Positions 1,213 to 26,748 of a stretch of DNA of 28,794 bases are shown piece after piece. Within the stretch, counting starts at the first letter, position 1, and each line of letters begins with the position of its first letter. The position numbers and the translations under genes are program-made. The DNA comes from Desulfobacterales bacterium (GTDB lineage: Bacteria; Desulfobacterota; Desulfobacteria; Desulfobacterales; UBA11574), in the NCBI GenBank assembly GCA_036447975.1, contig JAZFVY010000162.1, positions 1 through 28,794 on the forward strand, in the 5' to 3' direction. The notes below the pieces were generated by a model. The model worked only from the letters and a program-made list of their open reading frames with translations. It made no database searches and was not told where the DNA came from.

Positions 1213-2286
1213 TTATTGTTTTTGCTTTTTGGCCGCTTCGGCCGCTTTTTTCTCTTTTTCGTCACCAACTCTCTTGGCTTTGGCAGTTTCCTTCATCATG
1301 AACTTGATTTTCCAAGTTTTGATAATTTTGCTGCGGTTCTTGACGGCCCATCCGTGGTCGAGTTTGATGTAAGTCGGTTTAGCCGCGCCATAAAGGGCGC
1401 TGGCAATGCCCGGACGAGGTGGAAAGTATCCAAAAGAAGCAAGGAATTCACTGAATTGCTGAGTGCCAAAATAGTCCATAATCTTCTTGGACAGTTCAAG
1501 TTTCTTGGTCCCTTTGAGAATAACCGTATAGTTGCCCTCGTAACCGATACCCTCAACAGGGATTGTCCACTCGAGAGGATAGCCCTGTTGAATCCGGTTT
1601 AGGACATTCTCATCGGCAGTGATTCCCAGCAAATATTCGCCTCTGCCAACAAGATCGGTAGGGGCATTTCCGCTTTTGGTATAGAAGGCCATGTTCTGGT
1701 CAAGATCTTCAAGGAACTTCCAGCCTTCTTTTTCGCCGTAAAGCTGCAGAAAAGAATAGTTGAGCATAAAAGCGGTTCCCGACGTTCTGGGTGAAGGGGC
1801 AACGATTTGTCCCTTCCATTTGGGATCCAGCAGTTCCTTCCAGCTCATTGGCATGCCCCATCCTTTTTCGGCCAGTTTCTTTTTATTGCCCACCAGGACA
1901 AACGAAAAGGTCCCCAGGGCATACCAGCAACCATCTGGATCTTTGAACACAGGATCGATGTCTCCCCATGAGGGGGCTTGAAAGCACTCATAAATCCCCT
2001 GTTTCTTTCCGATGATCGCTTGGGCAGCTCCGTAGGAAATGACCATGTCGGCATTGAAATTTGGCTTTTCAGTCTGAACCCTGGCCCAACACTCTCCCCA
2101 GGAGAGGGTGATGTGTTTAATTTCGATTCCCAGGTTCTCTTCAACGTTCTTGGCGATGGCCTCATTCACCTCCCGGGAATACCCCATGTAGGCACTGATC
2201 GATTCCTTTGCCTGAAGCCCACTGGAAGCAATGCCAAATGTCAGAACCAACGCTAAAGCTGCAATGATAAAAAGTCTCTTTTTCAT
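1213..2286 (-). CDS. ABC transporter substrate-binding protein (Fe3+/thiamine/2-aminoethylphosphonate class)
   Basis: Sec-type signal peptide and the class motifs SWKELLDPKWKGQIVAPSPRTSGTA and GRGEYLLGI. Directly upstream of the permease. Substrate is inferred from context only. Confidence 0.88.
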   Translation of the reverse strand: MKKRLFIIAALALVLTFGIASSGLQAKESISAYMGYSREVNEAIAKNVEENLGIEIKHITLSWGECWARVQTEKPNFNADMVISYGAAQAIIGKKQGIYECFQAPSWGDIDPVFKDPDGCWYALGTFSFVLVGNKKKLAEKGWGMPMSWKELLDPKWKGQIVAPSPRTSGTAFMLNYSFLQLYGEKEGWKFLEDLDQNMAFYTKSGNAPTDLVGRGEYLLGITADENVLNRIQQGYPLEWTIPVEGIGYEGNYTVILKGTKKLELSKKIMDYFGTQQFSEFLASFGYFPPRPGIASALYGAAKPTYIKLDHGWAVKNRSKIIKTWKIKFMMKETAKAKRVGDEKEKKAAEAAKKQKQ

Positions 2287-8181: not shown

Positions 8182-9270
8182 CTATTTGAATATCCAGGCC
8201 GCTACCTCATGATTCGATATGGGTAAGATAGATGTCGGTCCCGGGCCATAGCCGACAATCGGGATCGCTCTTTCATGCAGCGAACCGTGGGACCGGACTT
8301 TGACCGTTTCCCTTGAGTTGGGCAAAGCCCCGAAAACCGTATCCCTGTCGGCCAACACAAAAAGATGCCCAATACGATGGGGATGGAGCCGGTATCTCTT
8401 TGCAGCTTCCGTGTTCGAGAAAACAGCTTCAATGCCCTGCTCCCAACGAAGGAGGGCCGAAGCTTCATCAATGGCAGACAGGTCATCCAGATAAATATAT
8501 GCAGCGCCGCCAAGATTCTGGTGATGGACGACATAACGATCTTTGATGATCGGGATGGCGTTTGCCGAAATCCCGGCATCTTTTAATATCCGGGTTAAAT
8601 CGAGTGCCAGGGTCTTTGGATTCATGCCATGGTCGGCCGTTACCACGATTTCAATATCCGATGCAACATTCAAGAGATCCCCGAGCAGACGATCAAGCCG
8701 GTTCATGTTCCATTGGGATTGGTCAGAATCAGGGGATAGCATATGATTGGCATAATCGGTTGTCGTTAAATAAAGCAGGTCGGGAGATTTTTCTGCAAGT
8801 ACTGTCCTGGCGGCACGGAACAGCCAATGATTAACCTCTATGGAATAGATATCCGGTGGCGCGCCGATTCGATCCACAAGCCAGGCCGAAGGCCTTTCCG
8901 CCGTCTCGGCAAGGGTTGCGCCGTCTTGGATTAAGGTTTTAAGTTTTTCTTTAGCGGTGAGAAGGGCCGATTTTCCGCCGGTTTCGCCAACCCGGCGAAA
9001 TATGGTCTCAGCCAGCAGAAATTCCGAGGATTCCATGTAAACTTCTTTTCCCGTTGACGGATCGAGAAAATAGTTGGAGGTAATGCCGTGGGTTTCCGGA
9101 AAACTTGCCGTGACAATCGTTGAGTTGTTGACATTGGTAACACTGGGAATGATCGCCTGGCCGGTTGTGCCAAATCCCTCCCGTGCGAGACTATCCATGT
9201 TCGGTGTTTCACTTTGGTCCAGATATTCGGGGCCGCAACCATCCAGACAGATAATGATCTTTTTTGTCAT
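8182..9270 (-). CDS. phnA: Phosphonoacetate hydrolase (alkaline phosphatase superfamily)
   Basis: PhnA signature motifs ICLDGCGPEY, PSVTNVNN (Thr nucleophile), TAKEKL, LYLTTTDY.NH, VTADHGMN, DRYVVHH and RSHGSLHE. Confidence 0.9.
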   Translation of the reverse strand: MTKKIIICLDGCGPEYLDQSETPNMDSLAREGFGTTGQAIIPSVTNVNNSTIVTASFPETHGITSNYFLDPSTGKEVYMESSEFLLAETIFRRVGETGGKSALLTAKEKLKTLIQDGATLAETAERPSAWLVDRIGAPPDIYSIEVNHWLFRAARTVLAEKSPDLLYLTTTDYANHMLSPDSDQSQWNMNRLDRLLGDLLNVASDIEIVVTADHGMNPKTLALDLTRILKDAGISANAIPIIKDRYVVHHQNLGGAAYIYLDDLSAIDEASALLRWEQGIEAVFSNTEAAKRYRLHPHRIGHLFVLADRDTVFGALPNSRETVKVRSHGSLHERAIPIVGYGPGPTSILPISNHEVAAWIFK

Positions 9271-9349: not shown

Positions 9350-10738
9350 CTAATAAAGCATGCCCTGTTCAACTTCACCGATTGTTTCATCCAAGATATC
9401 AAGCGCGCGGTCCATCTCCTCCCGGCTGATAACCAAGGCCGGTCTTAAGGTGATGATATTTCCTTCAATGGTCTTGAACGCAAGCCCTTTCTCCATGCAC
9501 TTATACATTATAATTTCCGCTTCATCAATAGCCCGTTCTTTCGTTTTTCTGTCCTTAACCAAGTCTATTCCTATGTGCAGGCCTACGCCTGACACGCTGC
9601 CGATAAGGGGGTGCGTTGCCTTCATATTATTCAATCTTTTGAGGGTATATTCTCCGAGTTCGGCGGCATGGGCATCTAGTCCGTTTTTTTCGATATACTC
9701 AATTTCAGCAAGGGCGGCAGCCGAACAAAGTGCGTTTTTCTCATGGGTGTAATGTCCGATTGATCGATCCTGGCACACATCATAGCATTGCCGAGTAACT
9801 ATCCCTGCAAAAGGAACAAGCCCGCCACCCATGGATTTCCCGAGAACGAGAATATCTGGTGTCAGGAAATGTTCACTGGCAAACATCTTTCCGGTTCGGC
9901 CGAATCCTTCAATGATCTCATCAAAGATCAGCAGTGTGCCATACTGCTCGCATAAGGTTTTTACACCCTCCCAATATCTTGCACTGGGGACCACCGGAGC
10001 CGCTGAGATGGGCTCCCCGACTATAGCGGCCACGCCCGGCTCCCTCTCCAGTATCAGCTCAATCTGCCTGAGGCACTCGGCATCCACATCTTCTTGTCTT
10101 TTAAAGCCCCAGGGATTTCGATAATAATTGGGAAATTCAACATGCAATGCACCCGGCATCATGGGCCCCATGCCGCCTTTGAAGTGCTCTTCCCCACCAA
10201 TGCTGGCGGCCGCGAACCCGGCACCATGGAATGAATCCCAAAATGAGATGGTTTTGAAATTTCCTGTTACCTGCTTTGCAAGCGCTAAGGCCATTTCAAC
10301 GGCCTCAGAACCTCCAGGGCAGAAAAGCGATTTACATAAATCTCCCGGAGTTATCTCTGCCAGTTTTTTAGCCAAACTGACAGTGGGTATATTTGTATAC
10401 CTTCTGGGGCAAAATGTCATCTTGGCATCCAACTGCCTTTTTACCGCTTGAATAACTTCGGGATTATTAAATCCTGCATTATGAACGCCGTTGCCGTGCA
10501 TATCGATATATTTATTCCCGTTAATATCTTCGATATATATGCCGTGGGCCCTGGACAACACATTTAATACCGGAGTCGACAGGCTCTGATGCAAAAAATA
10601 CTTGTTATCTTCGTTAAAAATGTCTCGGGTCTGGCCCAATAAATTCCTGTCCCAATATTTTTTCCTGTTCGGCGTTGTGTTTACATCTCCTTGCTCTCTT
10701 TCAATACGTTTTTCTTTTTTCATTTGTTGCATCCGCAT
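9350..10738 (-). CDS. Class-III PLP enzyme, PbfA-like paralogue
   Basis: EQGDVNTTPNR...HQSLSTP...GIYIED...MHGNGVH, SFHGAGF, FDEI, PLP lysine in LGKSMGGG, and GHYTHEKN. Same subfamily as 11026-12384 but divergent at several conserved positions. Confidence 0.85.
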   Translation of the reverse strand: MRMQQMKKEKRIEREQGDVNTTPNRKKYWDRNLLGQTRDIFNEDNKYFLHQSLSTPVLNVLSRAHGIYIEDINGNKYIDMHGNGVHNAGFNNPEVIQAVKRQLDAKMTFCPRRYTNIPTVSLAKKLAEITPGDLCKSLFCPGGSEAVEMALALAKQVTGNFKTISFWDSFHGAGFAAASIGGEEHFKGGMGPMMPGALHVEFPNYYRNPWGFKRQEDVDAECLRQIELILEREPGVAAIVGEPISAAPVVPSARYWEGVKTLCEQYGTLLIFDEIIEGFGRTGKMFASEHFLTPDILVLGKSMGGGLVPFAGIVTRQCYDVCQDRSIGHYTHEKNALCSAAALAEIEYIEKNGLDAHAAELGEYTLKRLNNMKATHPLIGSVSGVGLHIGIDLVKDRKTKERAIDEAEIIMYKCMEKGLAFKTIEGNIITLRPALVISREEMDRALDILDETIGEVEQGMLY

Positions 10739-11025: not shown

Positions 11026-12384
11026 ATGGATAAGTTGCACAAATCCGAAGGCGATATTAACATTTCCCACAGGCGGGACAGATGGCAGGCAGAGAACCTC
11101 GTCGACGAGACTCGATCTCTTTTGGCGGAAGACACCCGCTACTTTCTTAAACAATCACTTTCAACACCATGCCTGAACGCCATACGAAAGTGCGAGGGCA
11201 TCTATATAGAAGACATACAGGGCCGGCGATACATGGACTTTCACGGAAACAATGTCCATCAAGTCGGCTTTGCCAACCCGGACGTCATTGAAGCCGTCAA
11301 AAAACAGCTCGATGAACTTTCCTTTTGTACCCGGCGGTATACCAACCGCATTGCCGTGGATCTGGCCGGGAAGCTGGTCAATATCGCTCCCGGCGATTTG
11401 AACAAGGTGTTATTGTGTCCGGGAGGAACGGGGGCTGTAGGCATAGCCCTGAAGCTCGCACGGATTGTTACCGGCAGACACAAAACGATATCCATGTGGG
11501 ATTCGTTCCACGGGGCTTCCCTGGACGCCATCTCCATCGGCGGCGAGGCTGTTTTTCGTCAGAACATTGGCCCCCTGCTTCCCGGCACCGAGCATGCGCC
11601 GCCGCCTGACGAGTATCGCTGCGTTTTTGGTTGCCAAAGCCGCGGCGGCTGCGATCTGACGTGCGCAAAATACGTTGAGTACATCCTCGAAAAGGAAGGA
11701 GACATTGCCGCGGTGATATCCGAACCGGTTCGCAGCACGCCTTTTATTCCCAAGCCCGAATACTGGCAAGCAATCCGCCGCGCCTGCGATCGACATGGCG
11801 CTTTGCTCATCTTCGATGAAATCCCCCATGCATTGGGTCGTACCGGCAAAATGTTTACGTTTGAAAACTTTGGCGTGGTGCCGGATATGGTCGTTATCGG
11901 CAAAGGCTTGGGCGGAGGTATTATCCCCCTGGCCGCGTTAATTGCCCGTGAAGACCTGGACGTGGCCGGCAACCGGGCATTAGGACATTATACCCACGAA
12001 AAAAACCCGGTGGCCTGTGCAGCGGCCCTGGCCACCATTGAATATATCGAAAGGCACGAGCTGGCGGCCCATGCTCGTAAACTGGGACAATACGCGCTGA
12101 TGCACATGAAGGAAATGATGAAGCGGCATCCGTTGATCGGGGACGTACGCGGACTCGGTCTTCTTATGGGGATAGAACTGGTGAAAGACAGGATAACCCG
12201 CGAGCGGGCCAGTGACGAAGCCGAGGCTGTTATGTATGCCGCTCTTTCAAAAGGCCTGAGTTTTAAACTGACCATGGGGAACATCATTACACTAACACCG
12301 GCCCTGACCATTACACATGATGAGATGGATACCGCTCTTAACATCATCGATAACTGTATCACCACAGTCGAGAAGGGGGCATGA
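11026..12384 (+). CDS. pbfA: (R)-1-hydroxy-2-aminoethylphosphonate ammonia-lyase (class-III PLP fold)
   Basis: Matches recalled PbfA motifs: SEGDIN, QSLSTPCL, EGIYIED..G..YMDFHGNNVHQ, WDSFHGASLDAISIGGE, IGKGLGGG, LGHYTHEKNP and EAEAVMY..L..GLSFK. Phosphonate gene context agrees. Confidence 0.85.
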   Translation: MDKLHKSEGDINISHRRDRWQAENLVDETRSLLAEDTRYFLKQSLSTPCLNAIRKCEGIYIEDIQGRRYMDFHGNNVHQVGFANPDVIEAVKKQLDELSFCTRRYTNRIAVDLAGKLVNIAPGDLNKVLLCPGGTGAVGIALKLARIVTGRHKTISMWDSFHGASLDAISIGGEAVFRQNIGPLLPGTEHAPPPDEYRCVFGCQSRGGCDLTCAKYVEYILEKEGDIAAVISEPVRSTPFIPKPEYWQAIRRACDRHGALLIFDEIPHALGRTGKMFTFENFGVVPDMVVIGKGLGGGIIPLAALIAREDLDVAGNRALGHYTHEKNPVACAAALATIEYIERHELAAHARKLGQYALMHMKEMMKRHPLIGDVRGLGLLMGIELVKDRITRERASDEAEAVMYAALSKGLSFKLTMGNIITLTPALTITHDEMDTALNIIDNCITTVEKGA

Positions 12385-14543: not shown

Positions 14544-15917
14544 TTATTCAAAAGGAATTCCCATTTCAGCCAGCTCTTCTTTTATCTCATGGTACAGCCG
14601 TACATAGGATTCGCCGGGTTTTCCCGTAACGACGTCGTAGCATTCCTGGTAACGGTTCCCGTCCGGGGCGGTTTCAATCTGGGATTCGTATTTTTCAAGA
14701 AGTTTGATGACCAGTGCGTTGGCTTCTTCCCGATTGAGCTGACAGGCAGCCTTGCCCATCTCCACACCGAATTTCGCTTCCATTGGAGTGATGCCGTCAA
14801 TCTTTACGGCCTTAAAGGGATGGGGTGTCTGAACCGCCGGGGCTCCGGATGTAACCGCACAAAGCAGGTGCGCAGCAGCTTCATAGAAATAGGTTTTTGT
14901 GTTGGGACCGCTTGCCATATATCCCAGCCAAATCACCGGCATGGGAATGTTCCGGCTGGCAGCCTGGCAGCTTGTCGATACTACCCAAAGGACATCTCTA
15001 TTTATAGAACAACCGTTTTTGAAATGGACCGGGAAACTGAGTTGGTAATTGCCCTTTTGCACTAAAAGACCCATGAGGATATAGGCCGTGCTCACCACCG
15101 CCGTTCCGGCCGGGCCGCCGCAGTAACCTCCCAACACGGGTGCTGTCTCCGCTCCCACATTTGCTCCCCAACTATGCAGGTAAGCGACCTTGTTCAGGGC
15201 TCCAAAATCTATCTTCATCTCGGAAAGTGCCCCGCACAACCAGCCATCTGTAGTACGGAGTCCAAACTGGGGGGCGCTTGCCGCAATGGTTGTTATAGCT
15301 GCTGCTGCCGTTGAAATAAGATTCATGATCGGAAGGCCCGGTCGCCCGGCCCGCCTGAGCGCTTCCCGGCCGATTTTGATCCCCCGGATGGCTGCATAAA
15401 ATTCCGCCGGAGAACCTGCCATGGCCGGAATTCCGCGGATGCTTTCCAAAGCTGAAATGCTGATGGAGTTGGCCTCGGAGATCGATCCGTATGCCTCTAT
15501 CAGATTCGTTGCCATTTCTTCGGATGTGGCCACGATTCCCGATCCCACATGAAACCAGGGGCGTTTCTTCTCATCAGGCCGCCGCATCCCAAACACGCAG
15601 GCCTCTTTGCCCTCGCCGGCAAAACAGCGGCCGGGAGCCTCCCTCAACACCTCTAGTATTTCCTCCCGGCTGAACTGGATTATCCGGTAAGTATCCTGGC
15701 AGTAAACCCCTACTTGACTCATGAAATCAACGGCAGCCTCGAACAAATTATCGGCCGCCATGTCATCTGAGGGAACCGGGTTCTCTTTGTTATAGTGAAT
15801 TCCGTAACGCTTAACCACCTCGTTGAGCCGGGGAATAAATACCTTGATGTCGAATTCCTCTTCGCTCATGATAGGCCCTTTCAACGCTCTCTCGTAAACA
15901 TCCAGAAAATTCAGCAT
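14544..15917 (-). CDS. Monomethylamine methyltransferase MtmB-family protein without pyrrolysine
   Basis: MtmB-like N-terminus (DVYERALKGP...FD...YGI), AGRPG, EMKID, P..GGY.GG, AGP.T and C-terminus A.DG..YQECYDV.T..P..Y..Y...KEEL..MG..F. The true start is probably ATG 15917 (RBS AAGGAGG), not 15944. The frame has no amber codon. Confidence 0.9.
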   Translation of the reverse strand: MLNFLDVYERALKGPIMSEEEFDIKVFIPRLNEVVKRYGIHYNKENPVPSDDMAADNLFEAAVDFMSQVGVYCQDTYRIIQFSREEILEVLREAPGRCFAGEGKEACVFGMRRPDEKKRPWFHVGSGIVATSEEMATNLIEAYGSISEANSISISALESIRGIPAMAGSPAEFYAAIRGIKIGREALRRAGRPGLPIMNLISTAAAAITTIAASAPQFGLRTTDGWLCGALSEMKIDFGALNKVAYLHSWGANVGAETAPVLGGYCGGPAGTAVVSTAYILMGLLVQKGNYQLSFPVHFKNGCSINRDVLWVVSTSCQAASRNIPMPVIWLGYMASGPNTKTYFYEAAAHLLCAVTSGAPAVQTPHPFKAVKIDGITPMEAKFGVEMGKAACQLNREEANALVIKLLEKYESQIETAPDGNRYQECYDVVTGKPGESYVRLYHEIKEELAEMGIPFE

Positions 15918-16089
15918 ACCTGTTCCTCCTTGACAATATGGCACTAAGATCCTGACCTTTCAGGTAACATCTCCCCTCTGGTACATTTTCAACCTCTTTA
16001 TTATGGCTTTCCAGTTGAAAGCCCTTTGCAATGCGAAAATAATTTCTCCTCAGAAAAAAACTTGTATTAACATTAATTTTATGAAAAAT

Positions 16090-16140: not shown

Positions 16141-17046
16141 GTGAATCTTAATCAGCTTAAAATCTTTTATCTGGCTGCCAAGCACGGTAACCTCAGCGCT
16201 GCGGCTGAAAAACTCAATATTACCCAGCCGGCCATGACAAAGGGAATCCAGCGACTCCAAGAACATTATGAAATTAAATTTTTCAACCGCTTTGGCAAAA
16301 AAATGGCCTTGACCGATGCGGGGGAGGTTCTTTATGAAATCGCTGAAAAAATCTTTGAAATGGAAAATCAGGCTGAAGAAAGTATCCGTGATTTCCAGCA
16401 ACAAAAAAGAGGACATATCCGGATCCATGCAAGTGAAAGCTTTGGTGCGTACTATCTTCCGGATATCATCGTTTCCTTCAGCAAATCAAACCCTAATATT
16501 CGTATCTCTGCAAACATCCTGCCCACCAACCAGGTCGCGGAAAACACCGCTATGCTCAAAAACGATCTGGGATTTATCTCCTATCCCGTTGAAAACGAAA
16601 AATTGGTGGTCAGAGAGGTCATAGAGGACCTTCTGGTGATCATTGTTCCGCCGGACCACCCTCTGGCGCAAAAGAAGTTAATTGAGCCCCAGTATCTGCA
16701 AGGCCAGCCCCTGATTATGCATGAAAAGGGCTCAGCCACCGAAGAGGCCTTTACCGCATATAAGCAAAAGAACAACGTGACCGCCACCGCCCGGTTGGAA
16801 CTTTCAAGCAACAGGTCTATTAAAACGGCAGTGGAAGGGGGAATAGGTATTGCCTTGATATCCCGACGGATCGCAAACAGTGAAATTCAAACGGGAAGAT
16901 TAGTTGCCGTCCCATTGTCCGATCAATCTATGAAGCATAAATATTACATGGTCCACCACAAAGATAAATATATTTCAGGGATGCTGAAGAAACTCATCGA
17001 AACGGCAGATCATTGGGTCTCGGAATATGCCAAAAGCCTTCCTTGA
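16141..17046 (+). CDS. LysR family transcriptional regulator
   Basis: MNLNQLKIF...GNLSAAAEKLNITQPAMTKGIQRLQEHY...FNRFGKKMALTDAGE, followed by a LysR substrate-binding domain; 301 aa. Confidence 0.97.
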   Translation: MNLNQLKIFYLAAKHGNLSAAAEKLNITQPAMTKGIQRLQEHYEIKFFNRFGKKMALTDAGEVLYEIAEKIFEMENQAEESIRDFQQQKRGHIRIHASESFGAYYLPDIIVSFSKSNPNIRISANILPTNQVAENTAMLKNDLGFISYPVENEKLVVREVIEDLLVIIVPPDHPLAQKKLIEPQYLQGQPLIMHEKGSATEEAFTAYKQKNNVTATARLELSSNRSIKTAVEGGIGIALISRRIANSEIQTGRLVAVPLSDQSMKHKYYMVHHKDKYISGMLKKLIETADHWVSEYAKSLP

Positions 17047-17110: not shown

Positions 17111-17946
17111 TTAAGGATAAATTCCCCTCAGTTCGGTAGCCTTGGCAACGCGGCCAACCCCCAAGATATGGGCAGCAGTGCGCATATGCCCTTTCTTTTC
17201 CCGGGAAATTCTCAATACTTCATCAAAAGCCTGTGTCATAATCTTGTGCAGACTCTCGGAAACTTCTTCCTCAGGCCACAGGAGTTCCTGGAGATTTTGT
17301 ACCCATTCAAAGTAGGAAACCGTTACGCCGCCGGCGTTGGCCAGGATGTCCGGCACCACGAAAATTCCTCACTCAAAAAGGATGTCGTCCGCTTCCGGGG
17401 TTGTGGGGCCGTTGGCTCCTTCTACAACCATACGGCACTTTAACCCGGGTGCGTTCTCAGCCGTGATCTGATTCTCCAGGGCAGCCGGGACTAGAATATC
17501 ACAATCCAGTGCCAGCAGTTCTTCATTGCTAATCTCATCTCCTTCCGCTTCGTGGCTTAAAAAGCACTTATAGCGGTCTTTGCAGGCCGAGGCTTTTTCA
17601 ATGTCGAGTCCGTTTGGATTAAAAAGCCCCCCTTTGGCCTCTCCGAAGGGAATATTGACCACCGCTGCTTTCCAGCTCATCCGCATGGCAAGCGCCTTAA
17701 TTTCGTCTAAATCCACGTCAGGATGATACCGAATTCCTCCCTTGGCCGGTCCGCGAATATCGCTATGAACCACACGATAACCCGTAAACATTTTTAGACT
17801 CCCGTCATCCATTTTACGGGGAAATGAACGATCAGTTCCCGTTTTGTCTGGCTGAGTTTTTCCAGGAGTCCTTCGTCACAAGCCAAATATTGGCTAGCAA
17901 TGTTGCCCTGCTGCCTGGCCATTTGAAACGGATTCATCTTTTCCAT
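17111..17946 (-). pseudogene. Glu/Leu/Phe/Val dehydrogenase (glutamate dehydrogenase) remnant
   Basis: Start ATG 17946 (RBS AAGGAGG): MEKMNPFQMA...[11 protein letters not shown] -1 frameshift lies in the A-run at about 17813. Then MDDGS...GYRVVH...[12 protein letters not shown]...AKGG is joined in frame to LFNPNGLD, so the central region is deleted. An in-frame TGA at 17369-17371 falls in [19 protein letters not shown]. Confidence 0.92.
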
Positions 17947-18200: not shown

Positions 18201-18767
18201 CTAACCTGGTTTTTTCATCTGAAGATGCATCCAGGTTCGTTGGATTGACAGGATCGTTAGGGCATCTGTGATGCGGCCTTTATCAATCATTTGCATCACT
18301 TCGTCCAGGGGGTATTCGACTACGTCAAGTATCTCATCCTGGTCAAGATTCTGTTCGGATGCAGTCAAGTCCCTGGCCAGATACACGTAGATTTTTTCGT
18401 TAGAATAGGCCGGAAGGATGTGGATTTGAGCAAGTTCGATGAATTCATTTGCCTTCAGCCCTGTCTCTTCTTCCAGTTCCCGCCTTGCGCACGTTCCCGG
18501 AGATTCACCTGGTTCCATGGTCCCTGCAGGAATTTCCAGTATGTAATCTTCGACAGCATGTCTGTATTGCAATGTCATGACAACGGTTTTATTATCCCGC
18601 AACGGGACAATCGCTGTTGAACCCGGATGGCGTACCATGGCCATCTTCGACCTTATTCCGTTTGGAAGCGTTACATCTTCAGTTACAAAGGAAAAAAGCT
18701 TACCCCTGTAAATTTCTTCCGATTTGTTGACTTTTGCTTTTGGCCAAAGCGTTTCTTTTGCAGTCAT
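18201..18767 (-). CDS. NUDIX hydrolase, ADP-ribose pyrophosphatase (NudF-like)
   Basis: IYRGKLF...DVTLPNG...VRHPG, QYRHAV...LEIPAG, Nudix box GTMEPGESPGTCARRELEEETG, and NLDQDE. Confidence 0.92.
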   Translation of the reverse strand: MTAKETLWPKAKVNKSEEIYRGKLFSFVTEDVTLPNGIRSKMAMVRHPGSTAIVPLRDNKTVVMTLQYRHAVEDYILEIPAGTMEPGESPGTCARRELEEETGLKANEFIELAQIHILPAYSNEKIYVYLARDLTASEQNLDQDEILDVVEYPLDEVMQMIDKGRITDALTILSIQRTWMHLQMKKPG

Positions 18768-18781
18768 TACCTATTGTCTAC

Positions 18782-19726
18782 CTATTCCCACTCCATACCC
18801 TTGCTGTAACCGTAAGGTGCCCGGGTAAGGGGTGTAACAATGCGTTCTTCAGGGAGCTTACGGTCCGGCGGACCGTCATAGTATTCGGGCTTCTGTAATG
18901 AAAGATCCAGGGGTTGTACGATCTTTGCCGTTGAAGAGGCCCTCCATCCCTTCTCTCGTGTTTGTTCTTCGTAAGCATGAGCGACGATGCTCACAGATCT
19001 CGAAATCGCACAAAAAGCCAGGCACTCCACCGGCTCAAACCCCATGTCAACCAAACTGGCTGCTATCGCACCGGCAATATTCATGTAAATAGTTCGCCCC
19101 CAATATTTCTTGGTGGCCGCCTCGATGGCCTCTACCATTCTGACATGCTCCCCGGCGATACCGAATTGTTCAGCCAACTCGATCACCCTTGGGGCTCTAA
19201 GATCTTTCATATGTTGAGGATGGTGCCATCCCGGAAGGACTCTTCGCTCCCCAAATAACTTCACGAATTCCAGGTCCTTCTCCTCCTTAGTTCTGATGTT
19301 CCTGCAGATAAAATCCGCACCTTCCTCATTACTCCACCCTTTATCTTTTGTAAGTTTTACAATCTTAATCCAGACCTCAGCCGCCTCATGGGCATCCACA
19401 TGAGTGAAGCCGATGCTAAGGAGTCCCCCTGCCATTGCAGGCATGATATAACCTGCCCCGGACATCACGAAACGAGCAGAAGCCGATGAGGGGGACATGG
19501 CGTGTTCTGCAAAGATCACTAATAATGCATCGATCATTTTGGCCACGTTTGTGGGAGGGATTTCCCCCTTCCAAACCAGAGAAAGCATCTCGGCAAAACT
19601 GATGTTACCCGCAAGCTCGTTCACGTCATACCCCCTAACGACGATTCGATCCAGAACCTTGTATGAGATAGCTGTCTGCCAGTGAAATGGCTCTCTCTCC
19701 TCTGCTGTCTTCTTCTCTTTAGTCAT
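18782..19726 (-). CDS. Citryl-CoA lyase / small citrate-synthase-fold protein (copy C)
   Basis: WQTAIS...IVVRGY...L.GNISFAE...KGE.P, AEH, GFTH, PGWHHP...D.R, MNIAGAIAA...MGF, SR...AH.YEE and Y.GP.DR.LP. The start is probably ATG 19726 (RBS AAAGGAG). Confidence 0.88.
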   Translation of the reverse strand: MTKEKKTAEEREPFHWQTAISYKVLDRIVVRGYDVNELAGNISFAEMLSLVWKGEIPPTNVAKMIDALLVIFAEHAMSPSSASARFVMSGAGYIMPAMAGGLLSIGFTHVDAHEAAEVWIKIVKLTKDKGWSNEEGADFICRNIRTKEEKDLEFVKLFGERRVLPGWHHPQHMKDLRAPRVIELAEQFGIAGEHVRMVEAIEAATKKYWGRTIYMNIAGAIAASLVDMGFEPVECLAFCAISRSVSIVAHAYEEQTREKGWRASSTAKIVQPLDLSLQKPEYYDGPPDRKLPEERIVTPLTRAPYGYSKGMEWE

Positions 19727-20140
19727 TGGTAACTCCTTTCTCGACATTCAGGGTCACTTTAAAGGTTTTTTTCTGTCTTTTAAATTTACACGTTTGGGAT
19801 TCACTTCCTCCTAAAAATTCGATACGTCTTATCAGTTGGTATCCTGTTCCTGAACAAAATGAACATGGCATCCAAAAACTGTACTGTGAGATTTGTTATT
19901 ATTCTGCCGAACTTTTTGAAAAATTACAAGGTCAAAAAAAATGATCATCCCCAAAGGAAAAATGATTTAATTGTTTTCTTGAAAGCGTAGATGAAAATAT
20001 ATGCTAATTGAATTGAGTAAAGAGAGCTTTAGTGGCAAAGCACAACAACCCATTACTGTATATCATGGTAATGAGATAGTAATGGGTTATATTTTTTCTG
20101 AGAGTTCACGCTTTGTTCAATGAGGCGGGCTAGATCACAA

Positions 20141-20530
20141 CTATATTTTCAAATCCCACAAACCGCGATGGCCGCGTGACGGTAAAGGATCGTGAATACA
20201 CTTAATATCCGTCAGCTTCCAGGCATACCAGCCCGGCTTAAAGTCGCCAAAAGCATACTCTGGATAGCACGGACAATTCTCACTCGTAATTACCCGGCAA
20301 TCCACCAAGCTGCATGTTGCTACGATAACACCTTGAGGCAGTTCATCATAAGCCAAACCGGCAGATGCAAGAACACTGCGGTAATATGGGTCATCTACCG
20401 GCACCGCTTTTTTGGCCGCATGGATTGCCAAAGGCCCCCGGTACCTTGTGGACCATGATTTCGTTTCAATTGTCTTTGCTCCTATGGACACCAAAGAGGC
20501 CCAGGGTTGATATAACGTGATAGCTTTCAT
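20141..20530 (-). CDS. ASCH (PUA-like) domain protein
   Basis: MKAITLYQPWASLV..GAKTIETKSW.T.YRGPLAIHAAK, P.GVIVA...L.D and RGHRGLW. Confidence 0.93.
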   Translation of the reverse strand: MKAITLYQPWASLVSIGAKTIETKSWSTRYRGPLAIHAAKKAVPVDDPYYRSVLASAGLAYDELPQGVIVATCSLVDCRVITSENCPCYPEYAFGDFKPGWYAWKLTDIKCIHDPLPSRGHRGLWDLKI

Positions 20531-20536
20531 TAGGAT

Positions 20537-21169
20537 CTATTTGCGGGTCAAAATTGTTCTTCCCGGAAATGCTTTACTGATCAGTTCTGCGGCGATTTCC
20601 TTATCACAGACTCCAAAATCATCACTTGTTCCCGAAACAATTATATTGCCGTTAGCCTTAAACTGAACAAAGGCCCCGCCCGCCGGAGTGACGTGAGAAT
20701 TGACAAACCCCAGGTCCCGAATTTCCTCTTCGGTGTTTTTTAATATCTCGCGATGCCAGTCGTCTCCTGAGCGAAGGCAAACCATTCCCTCGATCACACC
20801 ACCTGAAAATGAAACCAGAAGAATCTTCCCCCTGTACCCTTCAGGCAGTTCGACTAGAGGAATCAATTTCTCCAGGTCAAGCCCATGGACTCGAAAAATC
20901 TTCAGTGCCCGAATCCGGCGGCTTAATCGATTTGCCGACCTTATTTCGCCTTTAGAGTGATCATAACGGGTTTTTTCCTTCAAAGAATCAATAATGGGCT
21001 CGAAGTCTGATTCCTGAAGCGACACCTGACATTCATTCATGGCAGTCATTGCCAATTCCAGCTTGACGGCCCTCAAGTAAGCAAGCACATGTTCTTTGCC
21101 CTCATGAACCTCTCGGCATATTGATGCGATATCACTACTTTCAGTATGATTCATTTGTTGCCACGCCAC
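20537..21169 (-). CDS. Hypothetical protein with a C-terminal Janus/Ocnus (phosphohistidine phosphatase PHPT1-like) domain
   Basis: The C-terminal 100 aa align by eye with PHPT1: GKILLV / LRSGDDWHREI / AGGAFV / IIVSGTSDDFG / IAAELISKAFP. The N-terminal half is helical and unrecognised. Confidence 0.6.
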   Translation of the reverse strand: MAWQQMNHTESSDIASICREVHEGKEHVLAYLRAVKLELAMTAMNECQVSLQESDFEPIIDSLKEKTRYDHSKGEIRSANRLSRRIRALKIFRVHGLDLEKLIPLVELPEGYRGKILLVSFSGGVIEGMVCLRSGDDWHREILKNTEEEIRDLGFVNSHVTPAGGAFVQFKANGNIIVSGTSDDFGVCDKEIAAELISKAFPGRTILTRK

Positions 21170-21248: not shown

Positions 21249-21974
21249 CTAAAAGGTTTTCAAATCAGTACGAATCAGGCCGCGCAGTTGGTTCAGACTG
21301 GTTATGACAGGTGCTGTTGTTTCCACCTCCGGCCATGAGCGGCGTACTGAATAGTGTTTTATCCAGATGGGACGAATACCGGCATCACTTGCCCCGCAAA
21401 TGTCAATGCGCCAGTCGTCACCCACGAAAACCGCTTCAGCAGGGCCAACCCCAAGTCTTTCCAGACATAAACGAAAAGGAGCGGCGTCGGGTTTGGGCGG
21501 CACACCCGATTCACCGGCCACGATAATGACCTTGAAAAACCTTTCGAGTTCCGGGAACGAACTGATACGGTGGTTATCTGAAGCCCTTTGACCCTGGGTG
21601 TTGGTAATCAGGGCCAGCTGATATTCAACGGCAAGATCCCCCAACACCTGCACCGCTTCGGGAAATGGAGTCGTATGTGCCTTAACCGTATCCCAGTACC
21701 CGTTTTCCCACTTTTCAGTGCACCCCAAGTCGGGTTTACGGTTGAAATGAAGATAAACCGCCTGCCAGATGGCTTTCCGTGATAATATGGACTTTTCGTG
21801 ACATTCTCTTCGAATCCTTCGATAGCTTGAAATAAAGGTTTCCCATGATGTGAGGCTGAGATTCGAATAGATCTTAATCTGCGCCTCTTTTTCTGCGGCA
21901 CGGAACCCGTTGGCCGAATTCGCCAAGGTTTGACCAAAATCAAAAAGTACGGCCTTTATCACGGCATCATCCAA
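21249..21974 (-). CDS. HAD-superfamily hydrolase, subfamily IA
   Basis: Motif I VLFDFGQTL, motif II LITNTQG, motif III PKPD and motif IV FVGDDWRIDI.GA..AGI. Confidence 0.92.
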   Translation of the reverse strand: MDDAVIKAVLFDFGQTLANSANGFRAAEKEAQIKIYSNLSLTSWETFISSYRRIRRECHEKSILSRKAIWQAVYLHFNRKPDLGCTEKWENGYWDTVKAHTTPFPEAVQVLGDLAVEYQLALITNTQGQRASDNHRISSFPELERFFKVIIVAGESGVPPKPDAAPFRLCLERLGVGPAEAVFVGDDWRIDICGASDAGIRPIWIKHYSVRRSWPEVETTAPVITSLNQLRGLIRTDLKTF

Positions 21975-22061: not shown

Positions 22062-23453
22062 TCAATCCCTTCCCCATTTCTTCAGATAATCTCCAAAAAG
22101 CTCCTCGTCTGTAGATATATGCTCTGGGATGGGGACAGAAAGCCAGGTATAGTTTAAAAAATGCCGCCAGTTGATGTTATCCGTGGTCATGTTGCCGGCC
22201 CAGGTGCCGCCGCCTAGCGTATCGGTGACCGGTTGGCCGTTAAACCAGCTTCCGCTGTTGGCCATGGCATGAGGCATGTTGCAGTTGACGCGGCCTACAT
22301 TGGCTTTTATGGAAAGTTCTATCTGGCGATCTTCTCTCGTGCTGTGGAGGGATGCGGAATGACCTTCCCCTGAATATTTGTGCATCTGTTTCATGCGTTC
22401 GATCATCTCGCTGAAATCCGTCCATTTCCACACGGTCAGAACCGGACTGATTTTCTCGCCGGAGAATTGGTCTTCAGGCCCGGGTTTTGTCCCGAGAACC
22501 ATGAGGAACCGCGTATTTTCGGGAACGTCAAGGCCCGCGTTTTTGGCAATAAAGGGTGCTGGTTTGGCCACGATATCACGGTTGAGCATGTTCCCGTCCG
22601 GCCACATGTAATTTCCAAGCTTTTCCCGCTCCTGCGTACTGCACATGTAGCCACCTTCGGCCTCAAACAGGCCGATCATTTTGTCAAAGACAGATTCTTC
22701 AATGGCAACGGCGTTTTCCGAAGAACAGGATGCGGAGTTGTTAGCGCACTTGGACATCACGATTTTTTTGGCTGCCCCGGCATGATCGGCGGTTTCATCA
22801 ATGATCGATACCACGTTTCCTGCGCTGACCGTTTGTGCCGGCTTGCCCGCAGCATAAACCACCTTCACCAGCGCCGCGCCGCCCGTGGCCACGGCAAAAT
22901 CACAATTGGCCATCAATTCGGATGTCTTGGAGTGGCTTGTATTTTTGATACACTGCATCAGGTCCACCGGCGCATCGATCTTTTTGAGCGCCTTTCTGGC
23001 ATGCTGAACAGTAAGATAGGAACTCCCCTGGGTTCTTGGGTGGGGGGTTACAATCATGGCGTTTCTTGTTTTCAAAGTGCTGAGCCCGAGACAACAGATG
23101 GTCGATTCGGGGTTGGTACAGGGCACCACGTTGGCAATGACGCCTATCGGTTTGGCAAATATTTTCAGCCCCTTTTCTTCGTCTACCTTGATAAGGCCGC
23201 AGGTCTTAACACCGATTTGGTCCCGCATGGTGCCGCGTGTCTTGCTTTGTATCTTTGCCACCTTGTCTTCGTAAACACCGATTCCGGATTCATCAACGGC
23301 CAGTCCGGCCAGAGCCTTGGCCGTCTCGGGTTTCTGAAGTTCCCAGCCCACTGCGGCCACCATCTCGTCGACTTTCTCCTGGGGCCAGAATTCAATTACT
23401 TCAAAAGCTTTTCTGGCTTTTTTATACATTTCCTGAATGTTGTCTTCTTCCAT
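22062..23453 (-). CDS. CoA-acylating aldehyde dehydrogenase, SauS (sulfoacetaldehyde dehydrogenase)-like clade
   Basis: QEKVDEMVAAVGW, DKVAK...KTRG, PIGVIA...PCTNP, ATGG, GNV.SIIDE, catalytic SCSSEN, FSGEKISPVL, GHS.SLHS and the SauS-like tail GTWAGN..TDNINWRHFLN.T....PI.E......LFGDY. RBS GGAGG. Confidence 0.85.
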   Translation of the reverse strand: MEEDNIQEMYKKARKAFEVIEFWPQEKVDEMVAAVGWELQKPETAKALAGLAVDESGIGVYEDKVAKIQSKTRGTMRDQIGVKTCGLIKVDEEKGLKIFAKPIGVIANVVPCTNPESTICCLGLSTLKTRNAMIVTPHPRTQGSSYLTVQHARKALKKIDAPVDLMQCIKNTSHSKTSELMANCDFAVATGGAALVKVVYAAGKPAQTVSAGNVVSIIDETADHAGAAKKIVMSKCANNSASCSSENAVAIEESVFDKMIGLFEAEGGYMCSTQEREKLGNYMWPDGNMLNRDIVAKPAPFIAKNAGLDVPENTRFLMVLGTKPGPEDQFSGEKISPVLTVWKWTDFSEMIERMKQMHKYSGEGHSASLHSTREDRQIELSIKANVGRVNCNMPHAMANSGSWFNGQPVTDTLGGGTWAGNMTTDNINWRHFLNYTWLSVPIPEHISTDEELFGDYLKKWGRD

Positions 23454-23637
23454 AACCTTTTTTCTCCTCCATTTTGTAAAAAATTATATGAGTTAAGAAA
23501 ATTAATTGTGAATCAGGGCCGGCAATCAAGGGCATTTCGTCGACAATAATTGTTTTTGAGACCTGTAACCGGAACAAAGGTCCTCCGTTTACAGTGGTCT
23601 TAACAGTTGTTCAACCTTTTTTGGGGTAAAAGTACCT

Positions 23638-24774
23638 CTATTTTTTAATGGGAATCGTGTAGCCCATCTCTTTGAAGGCATCTTTTGCCACAACAAAAAA
23701 GTCCTCAATATCCTTGTAGGTGATCTGGCCCAAATTGCATAACCTGAACGTTTTGACCCCGAACATTTTACCCGGATAGATGGTAAACCCTCGATCATAA
23801 CAATAGTCATGAAGCTTAAAAAAATCGAATTTATCATCTTCAGGCGCCTTGACCGTTACGACAAGACGCCCCTGAATCTTCTTGTCGATGACGGATTCCA
23901 GACCGATCTCTTTCAAGCCTTTATGAATTGCCTCCCAACATTTAGTCAAACGGTCCCAGCGGGCCTGTTCGCCTTCTTCCCAATACTCCTCTATGGCTTG
24001 CCGTAAAGCATAGATGGTCTGGACCGGCGGGGTAAAATGCATCTCTCCCACTCTTTCAAGAAAATCGTATTGCATGTAAAGGTTACAGTAGTAGGAACGT
24101 GTGGGATAATCTTTGGACTTTTTTATTTCTTCTATGTTGCCGACCAGCCATGAAGCACCGGTCATGGCGGCAAGTCCTTTCTGGGCGGAAGACATCAGAA
24201 AATCGATATTCTCCTTTTCAATATCAATAGGCATTAACCCGTAAGTAGAGATGGTGTCGACAATGAAAACACATCCGTTGTCATGGGCGATTTTACCGAT
24301 CTCTCTGACCGGATTTAAGACACCGGTACCGGTTTCATGATGAACCGTTGCCACCACGACGATGTCTTTATCTTTTTGCAATGTTTCTTGGACGACATCC
24401 AAATCGGGCAGACCTGTGGTTGGAAATTCAAGGTTCACACAGGGGATATGGTAATAATCAGCGATTTCCGCCATCCTGGCCGAATAGGCGCCGTTGTTTA
24501 CAATACATATTTTTTTATTTTCAGGAACAAGCGAATTGACACAAACATCCTGTATGATCGTGCCGGACCCGGTAAAGATGACTGCCGTATATTTTTCGGG
24601 ATCAGCGTTGCCAATCTTGACCAGCTCTTTGCGAATATCGATCATTATATCGACAAACTCTTGCTCTCTGGGGCAAATATCCGGCACGACCTGGGCATAT
24701 TTTACCGAATCGCTGGTTGTCGCCGGACCGGGGTTCAACAAAATGTTTCGCTTAACAGGTTTGACCACCTCCAT
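23638..24774 (-). CDS. phnW: 2-aminoethylphosphonate-pyruvate transaminase (class V PLP)
   Basis: LLNPGPATTS.SVK.AQVVPDICPRE.EF, GSGT, NNGAY..RM, VHHETGTG.LNP, VDTIS, SSAQKG (PLP lysine), FTPP and FTIYPGK. The true start is ATG 24774 (RBS GAGGAGG); the tracked ORF is 31 codons too long. Confidence 0.92.
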   Translation of the reverse strand: MEVVKPVKRNILLNPGPATTSDSVKYAQVVPDICPREQEFVDIMIDIRKELVKIGNADPEKYTAVIFTGSGTIIQDVCVNSLVPENKKICIVNNGAYSARMAEIADYYHIPCVNLEFPTTGLPDLDVVQETLQKDKDIVVVATVHHETGTGVLNPVREIGKIAHDNGCVFIVDTISTYGLMPIDIEKENIDFLMSSAQKGLAAMTGASWLVGNIEEIKKSKDYPTRSYYCNLYMQYDFLERVGEMHFTPPVQTIYALRQAIEEYWEEGEQARWDRLTKCWEAIHKGLKEIGLESVIDKKIQGRLVVTVKAPEDDKFDFFKLHDYCYDRGFTIYPGKMFGVKTFRLCNLGQITYKDIEDFFVVAKDAFKEMGYTIPIKK

Positions 24775-24817: not shown

Positions 24818-25864
24818 CTACATCCTTCCCACTTTCTTGATTCCCGACTTTTTACTGGGATCTTCAACTTCTTCTACAATGCCAAACCCGCTGCCGTAGA
24901 GTTTCTGTCTTTCGGTAAAGGCCTTCTTCCATTCATCAGGCGTTCGAGTGAGTGCCGGTTTTGCATTTTTATTCCGATCTTTCATTGGAGGAACCTGCCT
25001 GTCGGAAGGTCCGTCGTAATCTTCTTTAGGTGTTAATTCCTGTCCCTGCCGCGTATACGCTCCTCTTTCAATTTCTTCGATATAATGGGCTCCGGCAGCA
25101 AAAGAGCGGGTAACCGCCAGGATGACCCAAGTCGCCTCCGGGGTAAAACCCAGATCCATCATGGTGGCACCGGTGGCGCCGAGCATGTCTAGATCCACGG
25201 GTTCGGCGCTTGCTCTTTGGGCCGCCTTGACGATTGCTTTAGTGAATGCGATGTATTTGCCTGCCAGGCCGAGCTTTTCCGCACGTGCAAACATGCGTTT
25301 GGCTGCCTGGTCTTTTAGCATCAGACTGGAAACCCCCAGGGCTTCATCATTCAAGTTCTCCTTGACCAATAGTTCGGCCGCTTCTTCAAGGGACATGCTT
25401 TCTTCTTCAGCATTTTTTAAATACTTCTCGAGTCTGTTTCCAAATGCCGAGTACGCTCCGTAGGCATGTCCGAAGGCCAATATGGATGCGCCGCAAGCCT
25501 GAGTTAAAAAGGTTTTAGATCTGGCAACGATCCTTGACATTACCGCCGGCATGGACAGTCCGTCTTCCAAGGCCAGAATCATAACGTAATTCAACATCTT
25601 TTCTTCTTCGATTAATGGTATTCTGGCCTGTAAATCCACGAAAAGAACGTCAACCATACCATAGCCTTCTTCCATGAGTTCAGTGGTATCGAATCCCCGG
25701 GCAACGATCCGGTGAACGTTCTTGTAAGCGACTTCGGAAACCCACTGAAAAGGCGCCCTTGTGGTGTCAAGAGATACAGTACCGTACTCTCTTTTACTAT
25801 AGTCATAAGGCATTTTATCACTATCTAAATTCCCAATGCCTTTTTTATCACCTATATCACCCAT
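24818..25864 (-). CDS. Citryl-CoA lyase / citrate-synthase-fold protein (copy B, degenerate active site)
   Basis: WVSEV...IVARGF...L, LEDG, FGHAYG, DMLGA.GA.MMDLGF, TRSF..GAH.IEE and YDGPSDR.VP. The start overlaps the upstream paralogue by 13 nt. Confidence 0.85.
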   Translation of the reverse strand: MGDIGDKKGIGNLDSDKMPYDYSKREYGTVSLDTTRAPFQWVSEVAYKNVHRIVARGFDTTELMEEGYGMVDVLFVDLQARIPLIEEEKMLNYVMILALEDGLSMPAVMSRIVARSKTFLTQACGASILAFGHAYGAYSAFGNRLEKYLKNAEEESMSLEEAAELLVKENLNDEALGVSSLMLKDQAAKRMFARAEKLGLAGKYIAFTKAIVKAAQRASAEPVDLDMLGATGATMMDLGFTPEATWVILAVTRSFAAGAHYIEEIERGAYTRQGQELTPKEDYDGPSDRQVPPMKDRNKNAKPALTRTPDEWKKAFTERQKLYGSGFGIVEEVEDPSKKSGIKKVGRM

Positions 25865-26748
25865 TTTTTGTATTCTCCTTCCTCTTTTTGTTTCATGGCG
25901 TATTCCTGGCGTTCTTCCTGCTTCGGTACGACCCGGTCTTCGGGTCCGATATATTTTATCATGGAAAGATCAATCATCTGCACCATGGGCTCATTTCGCG
26001 ATGCCCCCCAGGCACGCCCTTTTTTCATGGTGTACAATGCATGGGTGGCACAACTGAAGCCACGGGTGACACTGCCGATACACCAGCCTGCATTCGGTGA
26101 AAAGCCGATCTCCATTAACGCGGTGTTACCTGCCCCCACCACGTTCACACCCACATAGGATTTTCCCTCTCTCTTTCGCCTGGCGTGAAAGTGCTTTTCG
26201 AGTGCTCTTTGGAACTCCAGATAGACACCTTCCAGCTCTAATTCTTCCTGCTTAACATGAATCGGTTCGGCCCTGGGGTCGCTGTTGATGTGCTGCGGCT
26301 GTCCCATGCCCATTACCGGTTTTCCGGCATCCAAATATTCATCGACTAGAATTTTGGCTATTTCGTCGAGGGTTTTCCCCTCCTCATGCGCCTTCGCGAT
26401 GTATTTGTTGACCATGTATCCATGGGCGGCCCCTGGCCCATGAACACCGCCAAATGTCATAATTGATGCTGCCACGGCGCAGGGAAGATTCGGTCTTCCG
26501 GCACTGACTCCGATGGCACCCACCGCCGAAGGCGACATCGAGTGCTCCAAAAAGACACCCATCTCGTACTTGAGCATTTTTTCTTCCTTTTCAGCGGGAA
26601 TTCGATTTTGGAAAAGGACAAAGAGTGCGTCATAAAACGAATAACCTTCCTCTGCCAGTTCACTCAGATTGTAACCTCTCATGACAGTCTTTTCTTCTGT
26701 CTTGTAGGAAATCGACGTCTTTCTTCGGAACAATGGTTCTCTGTCCAT
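25852..26748 (-). CDS. Citryl-CoA lyase / citrate-synthase-fold protein (copy A)
   Basis: KTSIS...VMRGY.L.EL...SF.DA, LEHSMSPS, FGGVHGPG, GMGQP...DPR, VNVVGA, MEIGF, TRG...H and Y.GPEDR.VP. RBS AGGAGG. Confidence 0.88.
   Translation of the reverse strand: MDREPLFRRKTSISYKTEEKTVMRGYNLSELAEEGYSFYDALFVLFQNRIPAEKEEKMLKYEMGVFLEHSMSPSAVGAIGVSAGRPNLPCAVAASIMTFGGVHGPGAAHGYMVNKYIAKAHEEGKTLDEIAKILVDEYLDAGKPVMGMGQPQHINSDPRAEPIHVKQEELELEGVYLEFQRALEKHFHARRKREGKSYVGVNVVGAGNTALMEIGFSPNAGWCIGSVTRGFSCATHALYTMKKGRAWGASRNEPMVQMIDLSMIKYIGPEDRVVPKQEERQEYAMKQKEEGEYKKWVI

Follow-up and report, generated by a model that had tools for sequence, protein, structure and literature searches.

A CoA-acylating aldehyde dehydrogenase of phosphonate-breakdown gene clusters as a candidate phosphonoacetyl-CoA-forming enzyme

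Phosphonates are a major pool of organic phosphorus. In the literature searched, three routes are described for phosphonoacetaldehyde or for hydrolytic C–P cleavage (PhnX; PhnY together with PhnA; PalA/PalB and their relatives), all of them in aerobic or facultative organisms, and a 2023 review lists PhnX and PhnY as the sole consumers of phosphonoacetaldehyde. One of the CoA-acylating aldehyde dehydrogenases (ALDHs), SucD of Clostridium kluyveri, binds the distal carboxylate of its substrate through Lys70 and Ser243; with Thr395, these two fill sites where PduP has hydrophobic residues (PMC10249356). Here we analyze ALDH-X, an enzyme of this type encoded on contig JAZFVY010000162.1 of a Desulfobacterales bacterium (assembly GCA_036447975.1). 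The window, that is the whole 28,794-nt stretch, is in its entirety a phosphonate-utilization island. It belongs to a metagenome-assembled genome (MAG) of 2.68 Mb that is 83% complete. ALDH-X lies in a conserved cassette whose other members are citryl-CoA-lyase-like proteins of degenerate sequence, either two (CclA and CclB) or a single one (Ccl3), and usually a HAD hydrolase; this wider unit was absent from the original prediction made for this DNA.

The ALDH-X gene (22062..23453, minus strand) starts with ATG behind a GGAGGAG ribosome-binding site and encodes 463 residues. The protein matches the Pfam family Aldedh (PF00171). Its top NCBIfam model is NF047625 (AcylSulfactDhSauS), to which residues 4–462 align end to end with model positions 4–464; the score of 475 bits is below the cut-off of 600. 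ALDH-X also remains below the cut-offs of the AdhE (NF010378, 352 versus 951 bits) and EutE (TIGR02518, 279 versus 620 bits) models, and the PhnY model TIGR03250 gives 24 bits for a cut-off of 635.65. The nearest solved structure is that of C. kluyveri SucD (8CEI; 266 bits over residues 3–438, approximately 41% identity), and AdhE structures score 240–245 bits. The original prediction of a SauS-like acylating dehydrogenase was based on an SCSSEN catalytic cysteine, an EKISPVL motif, a SauS-type C-terminus and a neighboring phnW gene. All of these could be located: SCSSEN carries Cys243, GEKISPVL spans residues 332–339, and the C-terminus reaches the end of the SauS model. EKISPVL is not a hallmark of SauS, since SucD (KEKMCPVL) and AdhE (HEKLCPVL) share it; on these alignments EKxxPVL is a mark of the acylating ALDH class. 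Judged by its full-length alignment to the solved structures and by its catalytic residues, ALDH-X is a member of the CoA-acylating ALDHs (the AdhE-N/EutE/PduP/SucD/SauS group of PF00171).

A maximum-likelihood tree of 80 sequences, the phylogenetic comparison called for by the original prediction, placed ALDH-X in a separate clade with 100% support and a long stem. Members of this clade are 70–80% identical over at least seven phyla. More than 100 database clusters show 75–99% identity to ALDH-X, and their named sources are Desulfobacteraceae, Acidobacteria, Bacteroidetes and Planctomycetota MAGs; within a library reduced to clusters of 50% identity, full-length relatives beyond these are at most 42% identical. 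The sister group of the clade (91% support; 46–48% identity; L039–L048 and L060–L065) has no cassette genes and outscores ALDH-X on the SauS model, with 505–539 bits. FabD-like acyltransferase, multihaem cytochrome, DsrK-like and NrfD-like genes were observed in the vicinity of one of its members (L060). The next group in the tree is the Desulfovibrionaceae SauS (483 bits), which sits two nodes from the ALDH-X clade. Its locus L066 contains succinyl-CoA-synthetase-like (SauCD) genes and TctA/TctC, a gene set of the type already described for sulfoacetate clusters of Bilophila (PMC10413351). The sole protein above the SauS cut-off (P0129, 799 bits) lies in a different subclade of the same superclade as ALDH-X. 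The NCBIfam score was discarded as a means of discriminating SauS, ALDH-X and the SauCD/TTT-linked Desulfovibrionaceae group both being under 600 bits. A search of 400 genomes of the same phylum yielded no bona fide SauS above cut-off; it provided three comparison clades (46–48%, approximately 40% and approximately 34% identity), none of which has the cassette. On the tree, therefore, ALDH-X is related to SauS yet falls in neither of the characterized SauS groups.

The 32 members of the ALDH-X clade that were aligned all have Cys243, His365 and Ser366, the counterparts of SucD Cys242, His364 and Thr365; in this enzyme class the His-Thr/Ser dyad protonates CoA. The equivalents of the SucD pocket residues Lys70, Ser243 and Thr395 are Lys71, Ser244 and Ala396. 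Every one of these clade members retains Lys71 and Ser244, as do both types of SauS, whereas AdhE and a second group of relatives (g34, 33–35% identity) have alanine at both positions. Because this pair is retained where AdhE carries two alanines, the pocket argues for an anionic substrate and not for acetaldehyde. The pair would indicate an anionic substrate in general, not succinate semialdehyde in particular. Other residues are invariant specifically within the ALDH-X clade, namely Ile68, Arg/Lys73 (Arg73 in ALDH-X itself), Asn108, Glu116, Ala237-Asn238, Ser240, Ala241, Asp411 and Ala419. The position of Arg/Lys73 is hydrophobic outside the clade, Ala237-Asn238 is Phe-Asp elsewhere, and the Arg70 typical of SauS is replaced by Ser or Asn. 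Glu116 is located two residues past the asparagine of the TNP motif.

The genomic context of ALDH-X was compared in 33 loci from 5 metagenome contigs and 28 GTDB species genomes, 31 of which were informative. They come from Pirellulales, Sedimentisphaerales, Planctomycetota, Anaerolineales, Chloroflexota, Thermodesulfobacteriota, Nitrospirota, Bacteroidota and others. In all but one of the 31 informative loci (30), ALDH-X has a Ccl-type gene immediately upstream; 28 of these loci carry the CclA/CclB pair, whereas L017 and L025 have a lone gene of the Ccl3 type. Across phyla, identity is approximately 80% for CclA, 72% for CclB and 55% for the HAD protein. Unbiased clustering of all open reading frames (ORFs) recovered the HAD gene downstream of ALDH-X in 21 loci, and further recurrent neighbors are PhnW (13 loci), PbfA (9), a zinc alcohol dehydrogenase (9), an MFS transporter (7) and a GntR regulator (6). 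In NCBIfam spot checks, the neighboring PhnW copies pass the catabolic model TIGR02326, the HpnZ-type zinc dehydrogenase passes TIGR03366 ('putative phosphonate catabolism associated alcohol dehydrogenase'), and the MFS transporter is similar to organophosphate:phosphate antiporters. None of the 31 loci contains sulfonate genes (SauT, SauCD, Xsc, TauF, TTT transporter, sulfite genes), and genes of succinate or 4-hydroxybutyrate metabolism were seen at no cassette locus. ALDH-X is almost confined to phosphonate-breakdown clusters of anaerobes. One locus (L036) appeared to have decayed CclA and HAD genes; it in fact contains 700 masked N bases. The Bacteroidota form (L003:12119-17915) has no transaminase and surrounds the cassette with an HpnZ-type zinc dehydrogenase, an organophosphate-antiporter-like MFS protein, a Phosphodiest-family protein and a CehA/McbA-type metallohydrolase, which suggests entry from 2-hydroxyethylphosphonate or from phosphonate esters.

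In the window, the minus strand carries, in order, CclA, CclB, PhnW, ALDH-X, HAD, a Janus/Ocnus-like protein, an ASCH protein, Ccl3 and NUDIX. ALDH-X begins 184 nt downstream of phnW, and the same order is seen in L028. The phnW product (23638..24774, minus strand, 378 aa) is a PhnW/AepZ-type 2-aminoethylphosphonate (AEP) aminotransferase, the presumed source of phosphonoacetaldehyde. It passes TIGR03301 (PhnW-AepZ, 428 bits for a cut-off of 360.8) and NF010006 (299 for 296) and fails TIGR02326 (295 for 400.8). A biosynthetic role for this AepZ-type enzyme was considered and rejected, since the MAG lacks phosphoenolpyruvate (PEP) mutase and the partner in other loci is of the catabolic TIGR02326 type. 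Two PbfA-type (R)-1-hydroxy-2-aminoethylphosphonate ammonia-lyases (9350..10738, minus strand, and 11026..12384, plus strand) score 655 and 716 bits against NF049939 (cut-off 525) and would constitute a second source of phosphonoacetaldehyde.

The enzymes known to consume this aldehyde were then the missing element. The MAG contains no PhnX (best score 29 bits), PhnY (313 bits for a cut-off of 636), PEP mutase or Xsc above cut-off. The same holds for PhnX and PhnY in five other carrier genomes, one of which is a complete chromosome of 2.5 Mb, and these five have no PhnA-like match at E 1e-20 either; PhnW is present in four of them, always within the cassette locus. Because the carriers make phosphonoacetaldehyde yet lack PhnX and PhnY, ALDH-X is the obvious candidate for its consumption.

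A second type of cluster was found in L069 (6257-15567) and L070 (6295-15487). The operon comprises CoA-transferase subunits A and B, a Ccl-like protein, a non-acylating BADH-like ALDH (247 bits on the PhnY model, below 636), a phnS2 ABC importer and PhnW. Divergently oriented genes encode PbfA, a His_Phos_1 phosphatase, a GCS2-family protein and an SDR. PhnW, PbfA and phnS2 are all above cut-off, and neither PhnX nor PhnA is present within these loci. The Ccl-like proteins are Ccl3 homologues (52–54% identity). Like Ccl3 and CclA, they keep the His274 equivalent, carry an HHxQH/PQH motif, have Ala, Pro or Val where the catalytic Asp would be expected, and show a characteristic motif at the C-terminus. 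An acylating ALDH in one type of cluster and an ordinary ALDH with a CoA-transferase in the other would represent two ways to phosphonoacetyl-CoA, the simplest common intermediate. In the L069/L070 type, the acetyl-CoA freed by cleavage would recharge the CoA-transferase. If the Ccl-like enzyme does release acetyl-CoA, this type would amount to a self-contained phosphonoacetate-cleaving cycle.

The Ccl proteins were compared with the citryl-CoA lyase of Hydrogenobacter (6HXP), whose catalytic residues are His274, His320 and Asp375. CclA (25852..26748, minus strand) has the citryl-CoA-lyase fold and a PQH motif; it keeps the His274 equivalent, with Gln for His320 and Val for Asp375. CclB (24818..25864, minus strand), whose ORF overlaps that of CclA by 13 nt, has the same fold, has lost all three residues and is probably a non-catalytic partner. 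Ccl3 (18782..19747, minus strand), the single-gene form of the subfamily, has both histidines, an HHPQH motif and Ala in place of Asp375. In the HAD protein (21249..21974, minus strand), motif I reads DFGQT: Asp12 and Phe13 are invariant in 20 orthologues, Gly14 is found in at least 90% of them, and motif IV GDD is kept. It looks like a Mg-dependent phosphotransferase devoid of the Asp+2 general acid. Phosphonatase and dehalogenases likewise lack this Asp+2. The protein was rejected as a PhnX, since the phosphonatase model did not detect it at E 1e-3 and no PhnX was found among its 43 PDB matches; it may be an analogous enzyme.

Taken together, the separate clade, the anion-pocket residues, the phosphonate context in 31 loci, the absence of PhnX and PhnY and the CoA-transferase clusters lend support to the original proposal that ALDH-X turns phosphonoacetaldehyde into phosphonoacetyl-CoA, which we consider rather probable. 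The family, clade, residues, synteny and PhnX/PhnY absence were computed here, whereas substrate, product and all subsequent steps are inferred. Phosphonoacetaldehyde would be supplied by PhnW from AEP and by the two PbfA lyases from hydroxy-AEP. Cys243 would attack the aldehyde, a hydride would pass to NAD(P)+ and CoA would accept the phosphonoacetyl group, the phosphonate being held by Lys71, Ser244 and the clade-specific Arg/Lys73. The resulting thioester could serve as the electron sink for the subsequent C–P cleavage. As to that cleavage, we propose with distinctly more reserve, and at slightly less than an even chance, that the Ccl-fold proteins lacking the catalytic Asp split phosphonoacetyl-CoA into acetyl-CoA and phosphate, with the thioester enolate as leaving group, in a CoA-dependent C–P cleavage. 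CclA/CclB, or Ccl3 alone, would bind phosphonoacetyl-CoA as citryl-CoA lyase binds citryl-CoA, the bond cut at C2 being C–P and not C–C. The leaving acetyl-CoA enolate would be stabilized by the conserved His, and the missing Asp, which normally deprotonates acetyl-CoA, would not be required to form it. The HAD protein may assist the transfer of the phosphoryl group to water, or perform it itself. The phosphoryl group might travel via an enzyme-bound intermediate, given the recurrent HAD protein without Asp+2 and the Janus/Ocnus-like protein.

Other readings of the locus each leave part of the evidence unexplained. The HAD protein might be a divergent phosphonatase that converts phosphonoacetaldehyde into acetaldehyde and phosphate, which would make ALDH-X an acetylating acetaldehyde dehydrogenase. 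A paper on MAGs (PMC9324843) reportedly drew a PhnW–PhnX–dehydrogenase route to acetyl-CoA, the HAD gene follows ALDH-X in 21 of 31 loci, and its DFGQT motif lacks the Asp+2 acid, as does motif I of PhnX. Nevertheless we hold this route to be unlikely. ALDH-X has the Lys/Ser pair in place of the Ala/Ala of AdhE and g34, and it scores far under the EutE and AdhE cut-offs. In addition to its lack of resemblance to PhnX, the HAD gene is missing from about a third of the loci and from L069/L070. Moreover, the near-universal Ccl genes and the CoA-transferase variant would have no explanation. It is similarly improbable that ALDH-X alone oxidizes and dephosphonylates its substrate to acetyl-CoA and phosphate, in analogy to methylmalonate-semialdehyde dehydrogenase, whose decarboxylation takes place on the thioacyl-enzyme, while the Ccl proteins do something else. 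There is no precedent for this within the ALDH class concerned, and neither the coupling to Ccl genes in 30 of 31 loci nor the combination of Ccl with a CoA-transferase and an ordinary ALDH in L069/L070 would be accounted for, even if the clade-specific, invariant Glu116, Asp411 and His395 and the enlarged motif preceding Cys243 (Ala-Asn for Phe-Asp) could add catalytic groups.

We judge it very unlikely that ALDH-X functions as a true SauS, with sulfoacetaldehyde derived from taurine or isethionate as its substrate, or that it uses a different anionic aldehyde, for example malonate semialdehyde or succinate semialdehyde. SauS is its best NCBIfam match, the score being comparable with that of the SauCD/TTT-linked Desulfovibrionaceae group, and the pocket Lys and Ser are common to SauS and SucD. 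However, ALDH-X belongs to a separate clade in which Ser/Asn70 stands for the SauS Arg70 and Arg/Lys73 for a hydrophobic residue, and the lack of sulfonate genes in its 31 loci contrasts with the true SauS locus L066 and its SauCD and TctA/C genes; Xsc is also lacking above cut-off in the genome of the window. Least probable of all is a route in which ALDH-X makes phosphonoacetyl-CoA and the Ccl proteins merely hydrolyze or transfer the thioester, as citrate synthase hydrolyzes citryl-CoA, so that a PhnA-like hydrolase, of which the window has a gene (206 bits) with a counterpart beside the HAD gene in L031, could act on phosphonoacetate: five other carriers have no such match at E 1e-20, building a thioester to waste it has no point, and the CoA-transferase of L069/L070 builds the thioester from the acid, in the opposite direction.

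Several observations speak against phosphonoacetyl-CoA formation and its cleavage by Ccl proteins as a general scheme. Invariant acidic residues (Glu116 and Asp411) are unexpected beside a dianionic phosphonate and could be a sign of additional chemistry or of a different substrate, and the clade-specific residues are placed in the pocket by the SucD alignment alone. L029 has an ALDH-X without a Ccl gene within 10 kb upstream. Genome G404 carries the full cassette and also a PhnX-like HAD (114 bits for a cut-off of 220) between phnW and pbfA (L020:2769-3392, equivalent to G404:C22:25279-25902), which may be a divergent PhnX operating in parallel. Together with the PhnA-like hydrolase of the window, it keeps a phosphonoacetate or an acetaldehyde route possible in places. 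Finally, the genomes involved are mostly incomplete MAGs.

The 184-nt spacer between phnW and ALDH-X contains an imperfect inverted repeat (CTGTAAACGGA...TCCGGTTACAG) at window positions 23562-23594 (minus strand), followed by a sigma-70-like promoter match (23483..23512, minus strand; TTCACA-18-TATAAT, 11/12). These elements may form an internal promoter/operator or an RNA hairpin. Sigma-70-like sites are no more numerous in the region than in shuffled sequences, and the promoter match is a lead only. Downstream of the HAD gene, the Janus/Ocnus-like protein of the phosphohistidine-phosphatase family (20537..21169, minus strand) was observed in a second cassette locus (L031:15991-16593); one may speculate that this recurrence fits a phospho-enzyme intermediate. 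The ASCH-domain protein (20141..20530, minus strand) belongs to the same gene string. The NudE-like NUDIX hydrolase after Ccl3 (18201..18767, minus strand) recurs beside a PhnA-like gene in L031 (13380-13898) and could clear a CoA- or ADP-linked by-product.

Elsewhere in the island, the PhnA-like hydrolase of the alkaline-phosphatase superfamily (8182..9270, minus strand) is under the phosphonoacetate-hydrolase cut-off of 407.55 bits, and its copy next to the HAD gene of L031 is 70% identical. A phnS2-like solute-binding protein of an ABC importer (1213..2286, minus strand) and a LysR-family regulator resembling that of AEP catabolism (16141..17046, plus strand) are both below cut-off. The island further encodes an ABC permease, a phn_DUF6-type EamA protein and a GntR regulator. 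Pyrrolysine-free MtmB, an MtaA-like methyltransferase, corrinoid proteins and a saccharopine-dehydrogenase-like gene were also observed (14544-15944, 2507-3553 and 4126-6099, all on the minus strand); MtmB pairs and the saccharopine-dehydrogenase-like gene adjoin the cassette again in L002, L005, L012 and L020. Short ORFs at 12601-13026, 13366-13770 and 17369-17812 give partial matches to PdxJ, a pterin-binding methyltransferase and glutamate dehydrogenase and are likely gene fragments or pseudogenes within the island.

In the literature searched, from which most subscription-journal papers are missing, so that a recent description may exist, we found neither phosphonoacetyl-CoA in catabolism, nor a phosphonoacetaldehyde dehydrogenase of the acylating kind, nor the route proposed here. 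The one mention of phosphonoacetyl-CoA concerns flavophos biosynthesis, where it is a hypothetical product that was not observed, and no link of citryl-CoA lyase to phosphonates was found. If the proposed route is correct, phosphonoacetyl-CoA would join catabolism as a new metabolite, and the completion of the pathway in sediment anaerobes that have phnW and pbfA without phnX and phnY would be explained. A substrate would also have been found for a highly conserved, unannotated pair of citrate-synthase-fold proteins. Their reaction would represent a third mechanism of hydrolytic-type C–P cleavage, the C–P counterpart of citryl-CoA cleavage, with carbon kept as acetyl-CoA for anaerobes.

Among described enzymes, SauS of Cupriavidus necator H16 and Bilophila wadsworthia (E5Y8P9) belongs to the same ALDH subclass and superclade as ALDH-X, aligns over the full length and shares Cys-Ser-Ser-Glu-Asn and the Lys71/Ser244 pair; the presumed substrate is in both cases a two-carbon aldehyde with a tetrahedral anion. 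SauS is approximately 40% identical to ALDH-X and a clade apart, and ALDH-X is under the family cut-off. ALDH-X has Arg/Lys73, Asn108, Glu116, Ala237-Asn238 and Asp411, which SauS does not, and is almost always found in phosphonate clusters with Ccl-like genes. The direction differs as well. SauS had been assumed in the original prediction to oxidize sulfoacetaldehyde after taurine transamination; instead, both characterized enzymes run reductively in sulfoacetate degradation, from sulfoacetyl-CoA to sulfoacetaldehyde (PMC10413351), whereas ALDH-X is expected to work oxidatively. SucD (PDB 8CEI/8CEJ/8CEK) has the catalytic Cys, the His-Thr/Ser dyad and the distal-anion Lys and Ser that are kept in ALDH-X. 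It differs by Thr395, which is Ala in ALDH-X, and by its gene context, and the presumed ALDH-X substrate is shorter, with a phosphonate for the carboxylate. PhnY (TIGR03250), the NAD-dependent enzyme of the PhnW–PhnY–PhnA pathway, would share with ALDH-X the substrate and the position after PhnW/PbfA. However, PhnY belongs to another ALDH class, which is hydrolytic and non-acylating, and yields free phosphonoacetate, and most genomes with ALDH-X lack PhnA. Finally, the PhnW–PhnX pathway has the same input (AEP and hydroxy-AEP) and the same presumed outcome, phosphate and a C2 unit; the electron sink of PhnX is a lysine Schiff base, whereas the ALDH-X route would use a thioester.

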